A stretch of DNA of 64,000 nt from Dehalococcoidia bacterium (GTDB taxonomy: Bacteria > Chloroflexota > Dehalococcoidia > SM23-28-2 > RBG-16-64-32), in the NCBI GenBank assembly GCA_963665775.2, contig CAXXTF010000002.1, positions 832,001 through 896,000 on the forward strand. The letters are read 5' to 3'. The notes under the pieces are model-generated. The model ran no database searches and was not told where the DNA came from. It was given only the letters and a program-made list of their open reading frames with translations. The position numbers and the translations under genes were made by a program. Position 1 is the first letter of the stretch. Every line of letters begins with the position of its first letter. Positions 44,530 through 56,849 of this stretch are shown here, in pieces.

Positions 44530-45015
44530 ATGTCAGACGGATTCCTCAAAGAGTTCATCGGAATTACGGGGGCCGACGAGAATGCCCTCGCCGAGGTGGG
44601 AGCCGTCCTTGCGGAGAAGGTGGGTCTGCAGCGGCTGGTGGAGATGGTCTACCAGCGGCTGCTTAGCTACCCGGAAACGGCGCGCTTCTTCGAGACCCAG
44701 GATGTAGAGATGCGGATACGGACCCTCGCCGCCTACATCGGCCGCCTCTTGGAGGGGGGCTTCGATTCTCAATATGACGCCGACCACACGGAGGTGGGCC
44801 GCAAGCACCAGCAGGTTGATATCCCCTTTGAGTTTCTGGTGGCCACGTACGGCTGGGTGAGGAGCCTGGTGCCGGGGTTGTTGCTAGAGGCCTTGGGCAG
44901 TGAGCCGGAACGGGCTGTCGCTCTGGCTACGTCCTTCAACAAGGCACTGGACTTCGATCTCTGCCTGCTGGCGAGGGGATACAGCAGGAGCGGTATACCC
45001 CTGGCCACTGTGTGA
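44530..45015 (+). CDS. Single-domain protoglobin/sensor-globin-like protein
   Basis: FIGIT..D N-terminus, B10 Tyr (VYQRL), CD1 Phe (PETARFF), proximal His (VGRKH..VDIP), KALDFDL..Y H-helix. Confidence 0.8.
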   Translation: MSDGFLKEFIGITGADENALAEVGAVLAEKVGLQRLVEMVYQRLLSYPETARFFETQDVEMRIRTLAAYIGRLLEGGFDSQYDADHTEVGRKHQQVDIPFEFLVATYGWVRSLVPGLLLEALGSEPERAVALATSFNKALDFDLCLLARGYSRSGIPLATV

Positions 45016-48389: not shown

Positions 48390-49781
48390 ATGATTAAGAA
48401 GGTAATGGAAACCCTGGATGAAACCGTCGCCGATATACCGGATGGCGCCAGCATCATGGTCGGCGGCTTCGGCCCCGGCATCCCCTACAACCTGATCTCC
48501 GCCCTCCACCGCCAGGGGGCCAAGGAGCTCACGGTTATCGCCGTCACACCGACAACCTTTCGCCGCCCAGACGTCAGCCTCCTGACCAGGGAAGGACGGG
48601 TGAAGGAGCTCATCTCCCAGGGTGGCGATGGCCACACTCCGGGCGTTCCCCAGGGCACGATGGCGGAGCGCGTTCGGGCTGGGGCCGCGGGAATCCCCGC
48701 CTTCTACACCCCTACCAGCGTCGGCACCAACATGGCCAAGGGTAAGGAGCACCGGGAATTCAACGGCCGCACCTATGTCCTTGAGACCGCCCTCACGGCG
48801 GACTACGGCTTTGTCCGGGCCAGGAAAGCCGATACCGTAGGCAACCTTCAGTACCGGCTCTCCCAAATGAACAGCAACCCGCTGGTGGCGCGGGCGGCCC
48901 GCATCACCATAGCCGAGGTGGAGGAGCCGATCGTCGAGGTGGGGGACCTCGATCCCAGCTTCGTCCACACGCCCGGCCTTTACGTCAAGCGAGTCGTGGA
49001 GATTCCGCCGCCTCCGGAGGGGTTCGAGGACCGCCCCTATAACATCTTTGGGGTGGCCCCGACGGGCCGAAGGTCAACACGGGGCATCGGCGAAGAGGCC
49101 GAAAGGGAAGAGAGCGGCAAGAAGAAGCTGAGCCGGGAGCAGATGGTGCGCCGGCTGGTCCAGGAGTTAGAGGAGGGCTGGGTGGTAAACCTGGGGATGG
49201 GTCTACCACAGTATTGCTGCATGCTCGCGCCGCCGGAGCGGGGCATCATCTTTCACGCGGAGAACGGGGTCATCGGCTACGGGGGAATGGCGACGAAAGA
49301 GAACCTGGACATTCACCTGGTGGACGCCCTGGGTTTTCACCTTACCCTTGGCCCCGGCGCCAGCGTCGTCGATCACGCGGAGTCCTTCGCTTTGGTCCGC
49401 AGTGGGCGCCTGGATGCCACCGCGCTAGGAGCGTATCAGGTGGCCGAGAACGGAGATCTGGCCAACGTGGGTCGCGAGCCGGGGGGCGAGGGAGGAGCAG
49501 GGGGCGGCGCCATGGACATGGCCGCCAACGCAAAACGGGTGTTCGTGATCATGCAGCACAATCGGGATGACGGAGAGGCTCGACTGGTAAAGCGAAGTAA
49601 TCTACCCCTCACGGCCCCGGGCGTGGTCAAGATGGTCTTCACTGACCTGGGGGTGTTCGAGGTGACGTCTGAGGGCTTCCTCATGCGTGAGATCGCTCCA
49701 GGCTGGACGGTCGACGAGGTGAATGCCCTGTCCGGCGCCGAGATCCACGCCGCTCCAGACCTGAAGGAGGTCCAGGTCTAG
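48390..49781 (+). CDS. Family I CoA-transferase, fused A and B subunits
   Basis: VGGFG, PQGTMAERVRAG..GIPAFYTPT, VHTPG (A); VNLGMGLP, AENG catalytic Glu, GGAMD, TDLG (B). Confidence 0.9.
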   Translation: MIKKVMETLDETVADIPDGASIMVGGFGPGIPYNLISALHRQGAKELTVIAVTPTTFRRPDVSLLTREGRVKELISQGGDGHTPGVPQGTMAERVRAGAAGIPAFYTPTSVGTNMAKGKEHREFNGRTYVLETALTADYGFVRARKADTVGNLQYRLSQMNSNPLVARAARITIAEVEEPIVEVGDLDPSFVHTPGLYVKRVVEIPPPPEGFEDRPYNIFGVAPTGRRSTRGIGEEAEREESGKKKLSREQMVRRLVQELEEGWVVNLGMGLPQYCCMLAPPERGIIFHAENGVIGYGGMATKENLDIHLVDALGFHLTLGPGASVVDHAESFALVRSGRLDATALGAYQVAENGDLANVGREPGGEGGAGGGAMDMAANAKRVFVIMQHNRDDGEARLVKRSNLPLTAPGVVKMVFTDLGVFEVTSEGFLMREIAPGWTVDEVNALSGAEIHAAPDLKEVQV

Positions 49782-50103
49782 CTTCGCCACCCAGTGGCCC
49801 GGGTTGTGCCTCCTCAACGGATGCATTCCAGGAAACGCTGCAACAGGGGGGCAGGCGTGGGATCACCGAGGGTGATCACGCAAGGGCGGGACGACAGGCG
49901 CGAGTAGAAATCAGCCTTTAAGAGGAATAGGTTGCCGCTCCGGCGGAGGGCCTGCCCTGCTTCAACCGAGGGACGCGTACTGGGGACGGCCACGGAATCG
50001 GCAAACGCCTGATGGCTATCGGCATATCTCTCGCCCTGACCCTGGCGGTCGGACGCCGGCCGGGCCTTTCGGCACACTCGCTCCCAGGCCGGCGGTGAAA
50101 CCC

Positions 50104-50132
50104 TTGACACCCAGCGCAAATGTGGATATTAA
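50104..50132 (+). promoter_or_regulatory. Sigma70-type promoter for the oxidase operon
   Basis: TTGACA-17 nt-TATTAA in an AT-rich patch. Confidence 0.55.
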
Positions 50133-50328
50133 TTAGCGATGATAGATAGAAACCGTAGATGCCTTCACTACTTGCACATCGTTTACGCGTGAATCTTACT
50201 GAACGTCGCGGCATGGTGACCGGCCCACAATTCGTGGACGCCGATAACAAGGATTGTTTGGCCTTTCTCGGCCGGTTCCACGTATTGACGCATGCGTCCT
50301 GCTGGAACCTTAGGCTGGGTGATTGATA

Positions 50329-51339
50329 GTGGAATACTTACAGACTGTTCTGGTTCGGATAGAGGCGGCAAAGATTGACGAGGCGCTGCGGCCGCAAGGC
50401 CTCCTCGAGGAGCTGGAGGAGCACCGGGGCTTTCTAGAGGAGCAGCCCGGCTTCCAGGACCTCAGTTTAGCACGCTCCATCAACAGGGACGGGAACATCC
50501 TGCTGATCGTGGAGACGCGCTGGCAGGACGACGATAGTCTCGTGTATTACGAGACGCACGAGCCCAACGTTATGGGCATCCTCAACCAGCACCAGGACCT
50601 CGTCATCCCGGACAGCCTGCAGGTTCTGGACATGGAGGCCCTGACACCTAAGGTATCGGCAGCACGCGTCAGGACGGCCACCGACCGCCTCGCCCTCCCC
50701 GTTCTGGTGCCCTTCGGGACGCTGGCCTTCATCCTCCTTGTGGTATACGGCCTCTCCCGCGTCTACCTGGAGCTGCCCGGGGACACAGCGACAGGCTTGG
50801 CTGCGGGCATCGCTCTGGGGATTCTTGCCATGGCCTGGTTCCTGTCCACACGTCCCATTATCTCCGGGATGCAGGTCGGCTTCATGGCCGTAGTGGTTGC
50901 CGGCGTGCTGGCTGGTGGGGCGATCTACGCGGTGGTTGACGATGACGATGGGGCGGAAGGTGACGGCCAGAATGGGGTCTCCGAGCCGACTCCCGGGGCG
51001 GGGGGCGGTACCGGCCGCTCGTTGGTGACCATGGGTGACAACTTCTTTGAATTCGAAGGGGAGCGAACGCCTGTCATTGAGGTCGCAGCCGGAGAGGCAG
51101 TGACCTGGGACCTAAGCCACAACGGTCAGGCCGTCCACAACATGCACATCGCTGGCACGGACAATGAATACGGTGTCGACTTCTGCGACGTGGGGGGTGA
51201 GGAGCCCTGCTCCGACCCGGATATATTTACAGCCGGCCAAAGTGGCACGATCACGTTCCAGTTCGACGAACCGGGCACCTTCATCTTCCGGTGCGATTTC
51301 CACGCGCAGGAGATGACGGGCGAAGTGAGAGTACGCTAG
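50329..51339 (+). CDS. ABM-like domain, 3 TM helices and type-1 copper cupredoxin fusion
   Basis: QPGFQD..LARS..IVETRW ferredoxin-like ABM pattern; three hydrophobic helices; HNMH and CDFHAQEM copper ligands. Confidence 0.8.
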   Translation: MEYLQTVLVRIEAAKIDEALRPQGLLEELEEHRGFLEEQPGFQDLSLARSINRDGNILLIVETRWQDDDSLVYYETHEPNVMGILNQHQDLVIPDSLQVLDMEALTPKVSAARVRTATDRLALPVLVPFGTLAFILLVVYGLSRVYLELPGDTATGLAAGIALGILAMAWFLSTRPIISGMQVGFMAVVVAGVLAGGAIYAVVDDDDGAEGDGQNGVSEPTPGAGGGTGRSLVTMGDNFFEFEGERTPVIEVAAGEAVTWDLSHNGQAVHNMHIAGTDNEYGVDFCDVGGEEPCSDPDIFTAGQSGTITFQFDEPGTFIFRCDFHAQEMTGEVRVR

Positions 51340-51359
51340 CCAATGCATCCGCCGCGGCA

Positions 51360-52205
51360 ATGAGATCTGTGGAGTCCGGTAGACTCGCTGTATCCCCCTG
51401 GCTGGGGATAGGTCTCCTGGTAGGCCTAGTCATCATTTTGGCGGGCTGCGGCGTCGACACTCCTCAGAACACGTTTGCGGCGGAAGGCGATGTAGCAGAG
51501 AAGCAGAAGGACCTTTTCAACCTGACACTGTGGCCGGCGATTGCGATCTTTATCCTCGTCGAGGGGCTGCTGGTTTACGCCCTCGTGCGATTCCGCCACA
51601 GGCCGGGGAACGAGGGGCTGCCCAAGCAAGTTCACGGTAACACGAAATTGGAGATTACCTGGACAATTCTACCGGCCATTCTGATGCTTGCTCTCGCCGT
51701 GCCAACGATCGCCGGCATCATAGACCTGGGGCGACCGCCGGCGAAGGACGCCTTGCAGGTCACCGTAACCGGTTTCCAATGGAACTGGATAATCGAGTAC
51801 GAGGAATACACCGACGCAGATGGCAACCCCCTGCGAGTTATCGGTACCTGCTCCACAAACTGCGCTGAGCTGCACGTTCCGGTCGGGCGTGAGGTCGCCG
51901 TTTACCTGGAGTCCTCAGACGTACTGCATAGCTTCTGGATCCCGAGGCTGGCGGGTAAGCTGGATGCGGTCCCCGGACGGACAAACGTCACCTGGTTTAA
52001 CGCTGTGAACCCTGGCACATATCAAGGACAGTGTGCGGAGTTCTGTGGGCTAGGCCATGCCGAGATGCGGATATCCGTAGTGGCCCAAAGCCAGGAGGAG
52101 TTCGAGGCGTGGGTGCAGGAGCAGCTCGGCGGAGATCTGACGACCAACGCTGGCGACGGGGAGGAAGGGCTGGCCGAGGCGAACACGGCGAGGTCCAAGG
52201 AGTAA
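51360..52205 (+). CDS. ctaC: Cytochrome c oxidase subunit II (CuA), lipoprotein, no fused cytochrome c
   Basis: LAGC lipobox, HGNTKLEITWT, QWNW, DVLHSFWIP, CAEFCGLGHAEM. Confidence 0.95.
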   Translation: MRSVESGRLAVSPWLGIGLLVGLVIILAGCGVDTPQNTFAAEGDVAEKQKDLFNLTLWPAIAIFILVEGLLVYALVRFRHRPGNEGLPKQVHGNTKLEITWTILPAILMLALAVPTIAGIIDLGRPPAKDALQVTVTGFQWNWIIEYEEYTDADGNPLRVIGTCSTNCAELHVPVGREVAVYLESSDVLHSFWIPRLAGKLDAVPGRTNVTWFNAVNPGTYQGQCAEFCGLGHAEMRISVVAQSQEEFEAWVQEQLGGDLTTNAGDGEEGLAEANTARSKE

Positions 52206-52208
52206 GCG

Positions 52209-54131
52209 ATGGCGAGCGAGGCTGCGGGACGGAGACCAATAACCGTTAGCGAAACGTTGCGCCAGCTCCGGACGCAGGGCGGAGACTACGGCGGGGTGTG
52301 GAGCTGGATCGTGACCGTCGATCACAAGCGCATCGGCATCCTATACGGGGTCACCGCCTTCGTCTTCTTCCTGTTCGGCGGCCTGGAGGCTATGGTGCTC
52401 CGGCTTCAGTTGTCGAACCCGGACGGTATCGGCGTAAACGCCGACCAGTTCAATCGGCTCTTCACGATGCACGGGACGACCATGATCTTCCTGGTGGTGA
52501 TGCCGCTGAGCGCCGCCTTCTTCAACCTCCTGATTCCCCTCATGATCGGCGCCCGCGACGTGGCCTTTCCGCGGCTGAACGCCTTCAGCTACTGGGTGTT
52601 CCTGGCTGGCGGCATCTTCATGAACGTCAGCTTCTTTACTGGGGGCAACATCTTTGCCGGAGAACTAGGCGCCCCGGATGCCGGATGGTTCGGTTATGCC
52701 CCGCTCAGCCTGCGGGGAGACACCGGCATCGACTACTGGGCGCTGGGGCTGCTCATTCTGGGCGTCTCATCGATGGCCGGAGGATTCAACTTCGCGGTCA
52801 CCATCCTCAACATGCGAGCGCCCGGGATGGCCCTGTTACGAATGCCTCTCTTTGTCTGGATGACGCTGGCCACCGCCTTCTTGATCATATTCGCCATGCC
52901 GATAATCACGGTCGCCCTGTTTCAGCTTCTGTTCGACCGCCTGTTTGACGCCAACTTCTTCAACGTCGCTGCGGGCGGCAACCCGCTCCTCTGGCAGCAC
53001 ATGTTCTGGCTGTTTGGCCATCCCGAGGTATATATCCTGATCCTACCCGCCATGGGCATCGTCTCGGAGGTGCTGCCCGCCTTCTCCCGCAAGCCGCTGT
53101 TCGGCTATCCGTTTGTGGTCTTCTCCGGCATCGCCATCGCCTTCATGAGCTGGAGCGTGTGGGCACACCACATGTACACGACTGGCCTGGGCACGGTGGC
53201 GAATTCGGCCTTCGGGATGTCCACGCTACTGATCGCCGTACCGACGGGGGTCAAGATCTTCAACTGGCTGGGGACCCTCTGGGGCGGCTCGATTAGGTTC
53301 AAGACTCCCCTCTATTTCTCAATAGGCTTCATCTCCATGTTCGTGATCGGCGGGCTAACCGGCATCATGCATTCGATCGTCCCCGCGGACTACCAGCAGC
53401 AGGACACCTATTTCGTCGTCGCGCATTTCCACCAGGTGTTGTTCGGCGGCGCTATCTTCGGCCTGTTCGCGGGGATCTACTACTGGTTCCCCAAGTTCAC
53501 GGGGCGGCTGCTCCACGAGGGCTGGGGCAAGGCGCACTTCTGGCTGATGTTCATCGGGTTCAACATCACGTTCCAACCGATGATGATCCTGGGCCTATTG
53601 GGAATGCCGCGCCGTATCTCATCGTACCCAGACGGCTTTGGCTGGAACCTCTGGAACATGGTGGCGACGCTGGGAGCGTTCACCATAGCCCTATCGATCC
53701 TGCTGTTCATCATCAACGTAATCATTAGCCTGCGCAGCAAGGAGCGAGTAGGGCCGGACCCCTGGGACGGGCGCACGCTGGAGTGGAGCCTCCCCTCACC
53801 GGTGCCGCCGTACAACTTCGCCCAGATTCCCACGGTCAAGGCACGGGACGACTTCTGGCACCAGAAGTACGTGGAGGATCAGGCGGGGCGGCCGGTGCCT
53901 GTGGTGGCGGACGGCGCCCAGGGAGCGCCGGCCAACGAACACGATGGCAGCGAGGAAGATCACGAAGTACACATACACATGCCGTCCCCATCTATCTTCC
54001 CCCTGATCGCCGCCCTGGGCCTGCCCATCATCGCCGCCGGCTTGATCTACGATTACGCCCTCGTGGCGGTGGGGGCTGCCGTCTTGATGGTCGGCATCTA
54101 CGCGTGGGCTTTGGAGCCCCCGACAGAGTGA
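52209..54131 (+). CDS. ctaD: Cytochrome c oxidase subunit I, A1 type
   Basis: TVDHKRIG, TMHGT, WLFGHPEVY, WAHHM, VAHFH, GMPRR. Confidence 0.97.
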   Translation: MASEAAGRRPITVSETLRQLRTQGGDYGGVWSWIVTVDHKRIGILYGVTAFVFFLFGGLEAMVLRLQLSNPDGIGVNADQFNRLFTMHGTTMIFLVVMPLSAAFFNLLIPLMIGARDVAFPRLNAFSYWVFLAGGIFMNVSFFTGGNIFAGELGAPDAGWFGYAPLSLRGDTGIDYWALGLLILGVSSMAGGFNFAVTILNMRAPGMALLRMPLFVWMTLATAFLIIFAMPIITVALFQLLFDRLFDANFFNVAAGGNPLLWQHMFWLFGHPEVYILILPAMGIVSEVLPAFSRKPLFGYPFVVFSGIAIAFMSWSVWAHHMYTTGLGTVANSAFGMSTLLIAVPTGVKIFNWLGTLWGGSIRFKTPLYFSIGFISMFVIGGLTGIMHSIVPADYQQQDTYFVVAHFHQVLFGGAIFGLFAGIYYWFPKFTGRLLHEGWGKAHFWLMFIGFNITFQPMMILGLLGMPRRISSYPDGFGWNLWNMVATLGAFTIALSILLFIINVIISLRSKERVGPDPWDGRTLEWSLPSPVPPYNFAQIPTVKARDDFWHQKYVEDQAGRPVPVVADGAQGAPANEHDGSEEDHEVHIHMPSPSIFPLIAALGLPIIAAGLIYDYALVAVGAAVLMVGIYAWALEPPTE

Positions 54132-54778
54132 GCGCCGCGGAGAGGGGAGAGTTGGAACACGCACCGACCGCCGAGCACGGGCTAGAAACGAGCACTGGCC
54201 TCGACAACCGCAAGCTGCTGATGTGGCTGTTCCTGGGCTCGGAATGCCTGTTCTTCGGGTCGCTCATAGCCGCTTACTTGCTCTACCGGGACCAGAGTCT
54301 GGTTCCGCCGTGCCCAGCGGACTGCGTGATCGATGGGGTAGCGCACCAGGGGTTGTTCGACATTCCGTTTACGTCGGTGAGCGCCTTCGTGCTGCTGATA
54401 AGCAGCCTGACGATGGTGCTGGCGCTGGCAGCGATCCAACGGGGTGACCAGAAAGGGCTGCGGGTCTGGCTGTTCGCCACGGCCGCGCTGGGAATCCTGT
54501 TCCTGGCGGGCCAAGCGTTCGAGTTCACGGAGTTCTACCGGGAAGGGCTGACGCTCAGCACCAACCTGTTCGGCACCACCTTCTACGTGCTGACAGGGTT
54601 TCACGGGGCGCACGTAACAGTCGGAGTATTAATCCTCCTTTCGCTGTTCGTCATGTCACTGCGAGGCCAGCTGTCGCCGGCCAAGAGCCTGAACGTGGAG
54701 CTGGCCGGACTGTTCTGGCACTTCGTGGACGTAGCCTGGATCGCCATCTTTACGCTTATCTATCTGATCCAGGCCTGA
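54128..54778 (+). CDS. ctaE: Cytochrome c oxidase subunit III
   Basis: MWLFLGSEC.FFG, LTGFHGAHV, WHFVDVAW; GTGA overlap with ctaD. Confidence 0.95.
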   Translation: MSAAERGELEHAPTAEHGLETSTGLDNRKLLMWLFLGSECLFFGSLIAAYLLYRDQSLVPPCPADCVIDGVAHQGLFDIPFTSVSAFVLLISSLTMVLALAAIQRGDQKGLRVWLFATAALGILFLAGQAFEFTEFYREGLTLSTNLFGTTFYVLTGFHGAHVTVGVLILLSLFVMSLRGQLSPAKSLNVELAGLFWHFVDVAWIAIFTLIYLIQA

Positions 54779-54797: not shown

Positions 54798-55163
54798 ATG
54801 ACGCTAGCCGATTTCCGAGGGATAAAGAGGTCAGCAGAGGACGAGACGCAAGCTGCCACCGGGGATGCCCCTGCGCCACATGAGAAGGGCCACCCAGGCC
54901 CGGCGGAATACAGTAAGATCGGTCTCATCCTAGGAGTCATAACAGCCGTTGAGGTGGCGCTGTTCTATATGGATATGGCGCAGTGGGCTCTGGTTGCCAT
55001 CCTAATCCTGCTGTCCGCGACGAAGTTCGGCTTCGTGGTCCTGTGGTTCATGCACTTGAAGTTCGATAGCCAGCTCTTTTCGGCGCCGCTGGTAATCGGC
55101 ATGGCATTTGCCGTCGCGCTCTTCGCCGTGCTGCTGTCCAGTCTCGGCGGTGGGCTGGTATGA
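54798..55163 (+). CDS. ctaF: Cytochrome c oxidase subunit IV
   Basis: ITAVEV, K..FVVLWFMHLKFD; 3 TM. Confidence 0.88.
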   Translation: MTLADFRGIKRSAEDETQAATGDAPAPHEKGHPGPAEYSKIGLILGVITAVEVALFYMDMAQWALVAILILLSATKFGFVVLWFMHLKFDSQLFSAPLVIGMAFAVALFAVLLSSLGGGLV

Positions 55164-55223: not shown

Positions 55224-56045
55224 TTGCCGCTACTGCATATCGGTGTCGGCGGGCCCTCGTGGCTCAATTGGTCCGTAGAGACGGATGTCCTCCTCCTGTG
55301 CATAGCGCTGGAATGGGGATACCTGTATACCGTGAATCGGCTGCGGACGCCCATCTCGGATGCCGGCCGGGTCAAGCGCAGCCAGGTGGTCCTTTTCTCC
55401 CTGGGGGTGCTGGTCATCTATGCGGCGTCCGGATCACCCCTTCACGACCTGTCCGATAAACACCTGGCCAGCGCCCATATGTTGCAGCACATCCTTCTGA
55501 TGCTGGTAGCGGCTCCGCTTATGTTAGCGGGGATACCAGGATGGATATGGCAGGCGCTGCTTCGGGTGCGGGGAGCGATGCCGGTTGCTCGTGTGCTCAC
55601 AAATCCGCTGGTCGCACTGGCCTTCTTTAACGCAGCGCTCCTGCTGGCCCATCTGCCGTCGGTCGTGGACCTGCAGTTACGGCAATGGTGGTTTCACCTC
55701 TTCGTACACTCGGGGCAGGTGGGAGCCGGGCTCGTGCTGTGGTGGCCAATCCTGAGCCAGGTGCCGGAGCTGCCTCGTCTTTCCTACCCACTGCAGATGG
55801 GATATCTGTTCTTGCAGTCGCTGCTGCCCTCGGTCGCGGCCTCGTTTGTCACGTTCTCAAACGTGGTGGTCTATTCCGTCTACGCCGAGGCTCCTCGCAT
55901 CTGGGGCATCACGCCCATTACCGACCAGCAGATCGCGGGGGGGCTGATGAAGCTCATGGGCAGCCTCATCCTGTGGTCGTTCATGGCCCTGGCCTTCTTC
56001 AAGTGGTACGACCGGGAGGAAGCTGAGGCGCAAGGCCCACGGTGA
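55224..56045 (+). CDS. ctaG: Caa3-type CtaG oxidase assembly factor
   Basis: SAHMLQH, APL, WWP, DQQIAGGLMK. Confidence 0.88.
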   Translation: MPLLHIGVGGPSWLNWSVETDVLLLCIALEWGYLYTVNRLRTPISDAGRVKRSQVVLFSLGVLVIYAASGSPLHDLSDKHLASAHMLQHILLMLVAAPLMLAGIPGWIWQALLRVRGAMPVARVLTNPLVALAFFNAALLLAHLPSVVDLQLRQWWFHLFVHSGQVGAGLVLWWPILSQVPELPRLSYPLQMGYLFLQSLLPSVAASFVTFSNVVVYSVYAEAPRIWGITPITDQQIAGGLMKLMGSLILWSFMALAFFKWYDREEAEAQGPR

Positions 56046-56207
56046 AAAGAGGTGCGAGAGGAGCTTGACCAGATGAGCCTGACAACGAGGGAGTAAGCCA
56101 GCCCTGTGGCAGACCGCAAGTGAGGAGCCGCCCACCTACCTGTTGCTGCACCTATTCCGCCGTTGCCACGACGACCGACACAATCATTGTGGAGGGCTAA
56201 CATACCC

Positions 56208-56849
56208 ATGACTCAAGAACCTACCTTAGAACCAGAGCCCTCCCCATCCGAAGCCGCGGAGCGCGTCGCATCTGGCCTCATGGCTAGCCTCCCCCAAGCG
56301 CTCCTCCTCGCACACGGCCCGAGCGCTACGCCCGACCTGCCCCAAGTGTACACGCCGCCCACCGACAATCTGCGCTCGGAGTCGCGGGAGACGCTATACC
56401 TGAAGGCCCTCAACGATGTTGCTCGCCTCCGTTTCGCCTTTCCTACACCCGATTATTCGGATTTCAAGACCTATGCCAACCATCCCCAGCGCAGCATGGG
56501 CGTCCAGATGTCCAACGGCGCCGTAGCCTACCCCGACATCGTGGTCGTTCAGCATCCCGAGAACTACACCCAGATAGTAGCCCAGGTTGAGACGAACGAG
56601 ACCGTCAGAGAGGATGTCGCCCACTACGAGTGGCGACTTTACGCCGATCTAGCGCCCCTATATCTGTATGTACCCGTGGGCAAGGGCGACGAGGCGCTAA
56701 CTCTCTGCCGCCGTTCTAATATTGCGGTCGTAGGCGTTCGCACCTGGCGCTACGTCGTCGGCTACGAAGGGATCGAGCTCAACGACCACTTCACAGTACC
56801 GAAGGGACCAGAGGATCTCTTGCCGAAGTTCCTAAGGCCTCCATTGTAA
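56208..56849 (+). CDS. Hypothetical protein with PD-(D/E)XK-like core
   Basis: GGAGG RBS; YPDIVVV...IVAQVET...LYLYVP. Confidence 0.6.
   Translation: MTQEPTLEPEPSPSEAAERVASGLMASLPQALLLAHGPSATPDLPQVYTPPTDNLRSESRETLYLKALNDVARLRFAFPTPDYSDFKTYANHPQRSMGVQMSNGAVAYPDIVVVQHPENYTQIVAQVETNETVREDVAHYEWRLYADLAPLYLYVPVGKGDEALTLCRRSNIAVVGVRTWRYVVGYEGIELNDHFTVPKGPEDLLPKFLRPPL

Follow-up and report, generated by a model that had tools for sequence, protein, structure and literature searches.

A gene at positions 50329..51339 (+) of the 64,000-nucleotide stretch of DNA that we analyzed (the window) encodes a 336-residue protein that joins an ABM-fold domain, three membrane helices, a linker and a type-1 cupredoxin, and it adjoins the genes of a terminal oxidase whose subunit II has no cytochrome c domain. 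How does this oxidase receive its electrons? On balance, we think it probable that the fusion protein is an accessory oxidase subunit and a tethered electron donor to the CuA center, standing in for the cytochrome c that the oxidase lacks. The blue-copper domain, predicted to lie outside the membrane on a flexible linker, would relay electrons between the bc complex and CuA; the path would run from quinol through the bc complex (Rieske protein, cytochrome c and the cupredoxin fused to it) to the cupredoxin of the fusion protein, then to CuA and on to the hemes a/a3-CuB. Subunits I and III would hold the protein by its three helices. The ABM-fold domain would lie on the cytoplasmic face, beside the point where helices 2 and 3 of subunit III meet, and would serve as a cap without catalytic function, either structural or ligand regulated, rather than as an electron wire.

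The fusion gene starts with GTG and has no internal stops, and the aligned homologues share its M-E-Y start at the same position. An AlphaFold2 model built from 114 sequences revealed a ferredoxin-like domain at residues 1 to 105 (pLDDT 95 to 97), helices at 109 to 148, 151 to 173 and 180 to 204, an acidic disordered linker at 210 to 228, and a cupredoxin at 231 to 336 (pLDDT 96 to 98); with a pTM of 0.48, the model does not fix the relative placement of these domains. On the plus strand of the window, the acidic ABM/dimeric alpha+beta barrel domain spans 50329..50643 (residues 1 to 105), the three predicted membrane helices 50692..50937 (about residues 122 to 148, 153 to 173 and 182 to 203), the acidic Pro/Gly-rich flexible linker, a predicted tether, 50938..51018 (residues 204 to 230), and the cupredoxin 51019..51336 (residues 231 to 336). 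The matches listed by Foldseek were all of the cupredoxin fold; the structure searches with the fusion and f17 models covered the soluble domains, not the membrane helices. The original prediction of an ABM-like domain, three helices and a cupredoxin with His and C-x2-H-x3-M ligands was borne out in all its parts by the model, the structure search and the alignment.

On which side of the membrane does each soluble domain lie? The mean number of Lys plus Arg was 2.4 before helix 1, 0.3 in the loop between helices 1 and 2, 1.0 in the loop between helices 2 and 3, and 0.45 in the linker. This bias fits an N-in/C-out topology, with the ABM domain predicted inside and the cupredoxin outside, and it agrees with the earlier argument that an odd number of helices puts the two domains on opposite sides. 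Residues S143 and R144 in the helices are invariant and are also kept in 30/30 rows of an alignment made up mostly of ABM-less relatives. No His, Cys or Met column able to carry a cofactor was present in the aligned helices, which offer no path for electrons through the membrane.

Downstream of the fusion gene, on the same strand, lie ctaC (51354..52205, start approximate; subunit II with a CuA motif and a lipoprotein-like signal), ctaD (52209..54131; subunit I of 640 residues with the motif GHPEVY), ctaE (54182..54778; a shortened subunit III that covers Pfam COX3 positions 77 to 255), a subunit IV gene (54798..55163; COX4_pro) and a gene with a domain match to the Caa3_CtaG assembly factor (55224..56045). 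Subunit II scored 213.5 bits against TIGR02866 (cut-off 147.7) and subunit I 699.7 bits against TIGR02891 (CtaD_CoxA; cut-off 670.75); judged by these profiles and the CuA motif, the enzyme is an A-type heme-copper oxidase with CuA. CtaD ends in a two-helix tail (53967..54116) that matches helices 1 and 2 of subunit III, and subunit III proteins made up 8/12 of the tail's own best PDB matches (best E 0.034). A motif search found ctaD to be the sole heme-copper subunit I gene in the genome, in which bd oxidase gave no match and ctaA and ctaB are sited elsewhere. CtaC continues for 45 residues past the CuA motif without a CxxCH, and the 64-kb window holds no CxxCH open reading frame of at least 80 residues, so that the claims of a CtaC without a heme c domain and of an operon without a cytochrome c gene both stand.

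Contigs from two other studies run unbroken across 48500-53504 and 48500-52586, and since they span the order from the fusion gene to the cox genes, we rejected an assembly artifact. A scan for promoters and terminators was uninformative: it gave 3 and 5 sites where shuffled sequence gave 1.7 and 4.6 on average, with none on the plus strand upstream of the fusion gene. Some of the locus is also represented in contigs from RNA libraries, one of which (51154-51534) bridges the fusion gene and ctaC; such contigs do not show a transcript. Two other genes of the window are worth recording. One (56163-56849, +) encodes a 228-residue protein with no Pfam or NCBIfam match, whose homologues with 60 to 68% identity are divergent from ctaA in family relatives. 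The other (44530-45015, +) is a Protoglobin-family gene (E 9e-26) between genes that by eye resemble an aminotransferase gene and serA.

We then asked how the fusion is distributed. A protein search returned 161 matches, and the best 120 of these were mostly full length, with 43 to 86% identity, as expected of a fusion conserved in relatives; every organism-named source among these 120 was Dehalococcoidia or Chloroflexi. The N-domain profile occurred once per genome in 49/301 Dehalococcoidia genomes (a count that includes the source genome and G216, which is unpublished), with the matches clustered in a small number of families, and in 3/351 genomes sampled across the phylum, all three within Dehalococcoidia. 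CoxB was found in 183 of the same 301 genomes, and thus most oxidase-bearing members have no ABM domain. Gene order was compared at 40 of the 48 non-self N-domain matches, with 8 left out. The architecture of the window protein recurred at 21/40 loci, of which 15 have the gene tail-to-tail with ctaG at the end of a ctaC-D-E-IV-G cluster, one has it about 7 kb from the cox genes, and 5 have no cox gene in the fetched flank. Synteny with the cox genes is thus kept at most of these loci. The fusion gene heads the oxidase operon in this genome, as had been noted, but does so at 0/21 of these loci; we attribute its place to a local rearrangement and rejected it as a conserved feature.

A second architecture, family f17 (16/40 loci), reads [two helices]-ABM-[one helix]-cupredoxin(s), with one or two cupredoxins. 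Fourteen of the 16 genes lie directly after ctaE, and no subunit IV gene match was present at these 14 loci. At the same loci, CtaD has about 536 to 586 residues, with the C-terminal tail absent. The two f17 helices match subunit III residues of about 2 to 59 (19/20 PDB matches were COX3, best E 0.0011) and the CtaD tail of the window (hhalign 96.6%, E 5e-10). By these alignments, the ABM domain and cupredoxin of f17 are joined in one chain with a structural piece of the oxidase, namely, the two missing N-terminal helices of subunit III. Subunit III usually has an N-in topology, so a start with two helices would place the ABM domain in the cytoplasm, independent of the charge bias. The f17 form was present in 3/3 Tepidiformaceae-labelled genomes. 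Its oxidases carry the motif YSHPAVY, compared with GHPEVY in the window, and the ABM module thus accompanies two oxidase types, which we take to be A2 and A1, respectively.

The remaining loci encode two helices plus ABM only (family f6, 2/40) or ABM alone (1/40). At two f17 loci (L148 and L153), the ABM-cupredoxin gene follows ctaAB and the two-helix motif is degenerate; the CoxB operon lies elsewhere and has neither a fused cytochrome c nor a fused cupredoxin. Elsewhere, a subunit I gene with a CcoN-like look by eye is followed ~1.8 kb downstream by a stand-alone ABM gene (L134:9440-9835, +). The three-helix cupredoxin also occurs without ABM. It adjoins caa3 operons that keep the cytochrome c of CtaC at eight loci, six of them labelled Actinomycetota or Acidimicrobiales, and a CtaC without cytochrome c at 8 more. 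This ABM-less form is older and more widespread than the form with ABM. Its presence beside cytochrome-c-keeping caa3 indicates that it arose before cytochrome c was lost and did not simply replace it, and its presence beside a cytochrome-c-less CtaC indicates that ABM is dispensable there.

Does the module track the loss of cytochrome c from subunit II? At the ABM-gene loci, the CuA motif of CtaC could be read in 25 cases, and a CxxCH was present in 0/25 of these. In the 30 top-ranked CoxB loci of the class, it was present in 25/25 from ABM-negative genomes and 0/4 from ABM-positive genomes, with 1 unreadable. Further GHPEVY-type operons had it in 9/9 cases, and eight HPAVY-type oxidases in ABM-negative genomes had no fused cytochrome c, six of them with a separate CxxCH gene nearby; these loci were partly picked for a short CtaC in search of counterexamples, and the tally of 9 plus 8 leaves out L251 (cut CtaC), L261 (no annotated match) and L248 (CtaC with CxxCH, no subunit I seen). 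One ABM-positive genome (G084) carries a second oxidase, which is of the caa3 type. The pattern holds at the level of operons in related genomes, and the counts are neither independent nor a statistical test.

Some genomes have an ABM piece with no cupredoxin. In all three of these that were checked (G001 and G036, with two helices plus ABM, and G021, with ABM alone), CtaC itself ends in a type-1 cupredoxin that sits where caa3 carries cytochrome c. The CtaC of a second oxidase in G088 likewise ends in a cupredoxin. These subunit II genes lie at L228:7310-8425 (-), L229:3654-4751 (+), L232:6687-7970 (-) and L238:6662-7702 (-). A cupredoxin on CtaC precisely where the ABM piece has none (3/3 genomes) is most easily explained by a donor role, and this swap of domains strengthens the original idea of a tethered copper electron donor.

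Sequence features of the cupredoxin are consistent with a blue-copper site. The type-1 ligands H270 (51136), C322 (51292), H325 (51301) and M329 (51313), the last three in a C-x2-H-x3-M motif, are all present in 138/141 aligned homologues, as is N271 of the His-Asn motif. The domain matched Pfam Copper-bind (28 bits, cut-off 21.2, E 3e-6) and the fold of 4hcf (Z 12.7, rmsd 1.6, 87 residues aligned). An additional pair, C286 (51184) and C294 (51208), probably forms a disulfide; both Cys residues are present in 85/141 homologues, one in 2, and neither in 54. Copper ligation by this pair is unlikely, since it is absent from 54/141 and nearly always kept or lost together. The cupredoxin (4 Lys plus Arg, 20 Asp plus Glu) and the CuA domain of CtaC (6 and 14) are both net acidic and therefore offer no charge complementarity. 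In a tree of 58 cupredoxin domains, which has few columns, 13/55 forks open and limited resolution, single lineages contain both cox-linked and bc-linked domains (f3 clade, 100/95; f28 clade, 98/92).

Could the cupredoxin instead be a copper chaperone that loads CuA during assembly and then leaves or stays inert? The original prediction had allowed for this, and some data point that way. Neither Sco nor PCuAC had a match in this 91%-complete genome, and Sco was present in 1/7 family relatives. The gene family neighbors ctaG, an assembly gene, and does so even where a caa3 operon retains its cytochrome c (for a review of CtaG and of CuA assembly, see PMC9145763). The fold also resembles that of the chaperone CupA (Z 10.1, rmsd 2.2, 87 residues aligned). 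The window protein itself had no SCO1-SenC or PCuAC match at E up to 0.1. However, Sco accompanies the ABM module in 18/20 f17 (Tepidiformaceae-type) genomes, and the idea that the fusion replaces Sco was thus not borne out; 10/25 caa3 genomes likewise have no Sco match. Moreover, the conserved His-Cys-His-Met set with its His-Asn motif describes a closed site, and in relatives the cupredoxin is permanently fused to subunit II or to a piece of subunit III. A chaperone role is less likely than electron donation, and we give it a small chance.

The ABM domain is the best-conserved part of the fusion protein and is strongly acidic (7 Lys plus Arg, 22 Asp plus Glu). Its fold resembles LsrG (2gff; Z 11.9, rmsd 2.6, 97 residues aligned) and IsdG (1xbw; Z 10.6, rmsd 2.5, 97 aligned), with 9 to 15% identity to the structure matches. 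The Pfam ABM profile scored the window copy at 18.6 bits (E 0.018), below the cut-off of 23.1, and matched 29/33 N-domains at E up to 0.1. The nearest solved sequences are IsdI/IsdG-type proteins (E 0.001 to 0.4), which raises the possibility of a heme-handling assembly factor, in which the ABM domain would bind heme o or a in the cytoplasm and hand it to subunit I, with the cupredoxin as a separate passenger. We take the heme-ruffling Trp of IsdG/IsdI to be IsdI W66 and the axial His to lie, presumably, ten residues after it. The column aligned to W66 is Tyr in 140/141 homologues; position 84, ten residues on if the alignment is ungapped (as printed, it ends before 84), is Ile in 130/141. As aligned, then, the Trp is not kept, and the axial His appears not to be.

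Other residues leave some room for heme. H88, one turn beyond position 84, is His in 119/141 homologues, and its counterpart is His in 20/28 proteins of other architectures; M102 is also conserved, in part, in the window architecture and the others. H32 is invariant in the window architecture, but the matching column has His in just 4/28 proteins of other architectures, and we rejected it as a universal ligand. An ABM gene lies directly after ctaA-ctaB at 5/40 loci, although ctaAB flank cox genes anyway, and the eight cytochrome-c-less operons described above have the anchor without ABM. We rate heme handling as about as improbable as a chaperone role. We read the ABM domain as a predicted cap without catalytic function on the cytoplasmic side; a part in heme handling during assembly is another possibility. 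The suggestion that the two soluble domains are wired together found no support: the helices have no cofactor column, the ABM domain and the cupredoxin each occur without the other among relatives, and the heme residues of IsdG appear to be lost, as aligned.

We next considered the source of electrons. The genome has a bc operon (G000:C1:556155-559996) with petB, a petD-like gene, and genes for a Rieske protein and a cytochrome c, cytochrome b being split. The cytochrome c has 402 residues and a single CxxCH, ends in a cupredoxin, and is the sole Cytochrom_C match in the genome. A petB homologue was present in 46/47 ABM-positive genomes and in 7/25 caa3 genomes. In 15/16 bc loci fetched from ABM-positive genomes, the cytochrome c ends in a cupredoxin (12 identified by motif, 2 by eye and 1 by profile, the check covering all but L206); the same is true of 3/3 in the caa3 family f28, while at that place G197, which is a caa3 genome, carries a second cytochrome c. 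The f17 bc cytochrome c has a long repeat insert between its heme and copper domains (L203:4618-6468, +; L205:1552-3489, -), which looks LysM-like by eye and has a possible role in wall anchoring.

No multiheme subunit of alternative complex III (ACIII) and no multi-CxxCH open reading frame were found in the 91%-complete genome, whose sole NrfD match adjoins a ferredoxin-type gene. This NrfD-type membrane protein is encoded ~3 kb from the bc operon (G000:C1:549229-553122, -), with a ferredoxin-type protein and an aldehyde-oxidoreductase-like gene, the latter two assigned by eye. The genome also encodes other tethered cupredoxins, which are possible donors. A lipoprotein-like cupredoxin gene just after ctaB (L087; G000:C2:501678 to about 502200, -) contains one in-frame TAG. 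Contigs from 4 studies are identical there, so this is not a one-off assembly error, and the gene is either a pseudogene or subject to read-through.

These carriers bear on a further alternative, that the fusion protein is an AcoP-like partner or supercomplex scaffold that binds and stabilizes the oxidase or links oxidase and bc complex via ABM dimers, with electrons coming mainly from the bc-fused or another cupredoxin. ABM folds usually dimerize, a cupredoxin is already present at the end of the bc cytochrome c, and the three-helix anchor coexists with caa3. The AcoP protein itself is described as stabilizing its oxidase and possibly providing a second electron entry (PMC5982212). The replacement of cytochrome c by a cupredoxin on subunit II, in 3/3 checked genomes with a cupredoxin-less ABM piece, argues against a mainly structural role, and we hold the scaffold to be slightly less probable than either of the assembly roles. 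A transmembrane sensor that relays the copper redox state via the helices to the ABM domain and so regulates respiration would suit soluble domains on opposite sides and the invariant S143/R144, but is very improbable given that a disordered linker of about 30 residues parts the cupredoxin from the helices, that the domains occur separately, and that there is no output domain.

For the favored reading of an accessory subunit and tethered donor, we modelled a complex of CtaD 34-638, CtaE 6-196 and fusion protein 1-203, subunits II and IV being left out for size. The complex score was 0.35 (runs 0.42, 0.00 and 0.35), the best of 3 controls was 0.00, the contact agreement between runs was at least 0%, and the partner pLDDT was at least 63. 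The score mark is reached by 116/157 solved complexes and 2/215 mismatches; at scores of 0.60 or under, it is reached by just 18/157 solved complexes and both mismatches. The prediction thus lends weak support to binding of the fusion protein to subunits I and III.

More tentatively, an aerobic clade of Dehalococcoidia may have rebuilt the link from complex III to complex IV out of interchangeable tethered copper domains, with one heme c left. It is possible that the same clade recruited the ABM fold as a true cytoplasmic oxidase subunit that binds heme or a metabolite, controls assembly or activity, and is kept on two oxidase types (GHPEVY and YSHPAVY) via four gene architectures. Copper donors to terminal oxidases have so far been reported mainly from archaea and Acidithiobacillus. 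This bacterial clade displays the swap at the level of domains, with cupredoxins attached to subunit II, to the cytochrome c of the bc complex and to a fragment of subunit III, and so offers a natural series for asking how CuA takes electrons when the donor is a copper site instead of a heme. A further prediction is a cytoplasmic subunit of the ABM fold, as yet undescribed, in heme-copper oxidases; we have not found an inside-facing ABM fold reported on such oxidases.

A search of open-access main texts returned no description of this protein or architecture, and the available portions of PMC8756737 and PMC10284905 do not describe the architecture. A search for Dehalococcoidia together with cupredoxin returned nitrite reductase only, and the main text of the Tepidiforma paper makes no mention of cytochrome, cupredoxin or plastocyanin. 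Tepidiforma isolates have been cultured and are oxidase positive (PMC10284905, in part). Because the f17 form occurs in Tepidiformaceae-labelled genomes, the idea may be testable in these isolates.

How does the fusion compare with known systems? The window operon has the same gene set as the Bacillus-type caa3 operon (ctaCDEF-ctaG), including Caa3_CtaG, and orthologous caa3 operons in other Dehalococcoidia have a fused cytochrome c; the window operon differs in having no cytochrome c domain and an extra cupredoxin/ABM protein. The IsdG/IsdI and ABM-family proteins share the fold of the N-domain and its best sequence similarity, whereas the N-domain is membrane tethered and fused to oxidase parts in relatives, and appears not to keep the heme residues as aligned. 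Auracyanin A is the best solved-sequence match to the anchor-plus-cupredoxin profile (E 1.5e-11), and the membrane-tethered AuraB of Chloroflexus/Roseiflexus has been hypothesized to serve respiration (PMC3150298, in part). In the portions available, the auracyanins have alternative complex III as their partner, their genes lie far from those of the complex, and no three-helix anchor or ABM domain is described. The earlier comparison with auracyanin holds as an analogy but not as the same system, because a bc complex is encoded in this genome and the search for a multiheme ACIII subunit gave none. Sulfocyanin (SoxE) of the Sulfolobus SoxM supercomplex is likewise a blue-copper link between a bc-like complex and an oxidase (PMC3062577, in part), and some ABM-less relatives match Pfam SoxE; sulfocyanin is archaeal, however, and the window protein itself has no SoxE match. 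AcoP of Acidithiobacillus ferrooxidans is a membrane-anchored cupredoxin that is encoded with its oxidase and co-purifies with it (PMC5982212, in part), and its fold resembles the f17 model (Z 10.0, rmsd 2.3, 95 residues aligned). From the same portions, AcoP differs in its one anchor helix, its green type-1.5 site, its work with cytochrome c4 and its lack of a cytoplasmic domain. HcpB of Halobacterium salinarum, a halocyanin-CbaD fusion listed as uncharacterized, likewise joins a blue-copper domain to a small terminal-oxidase subunit, which has been taken as evidence of electron donation (PMC2674319 and PMC8305020, in part). HcpB belongs to an archaeal ba3-type oxidase with no ABM domain described in those portions, whereas the window protein accompanies an A-type oxidase and a bc complex with one cytochrome c.
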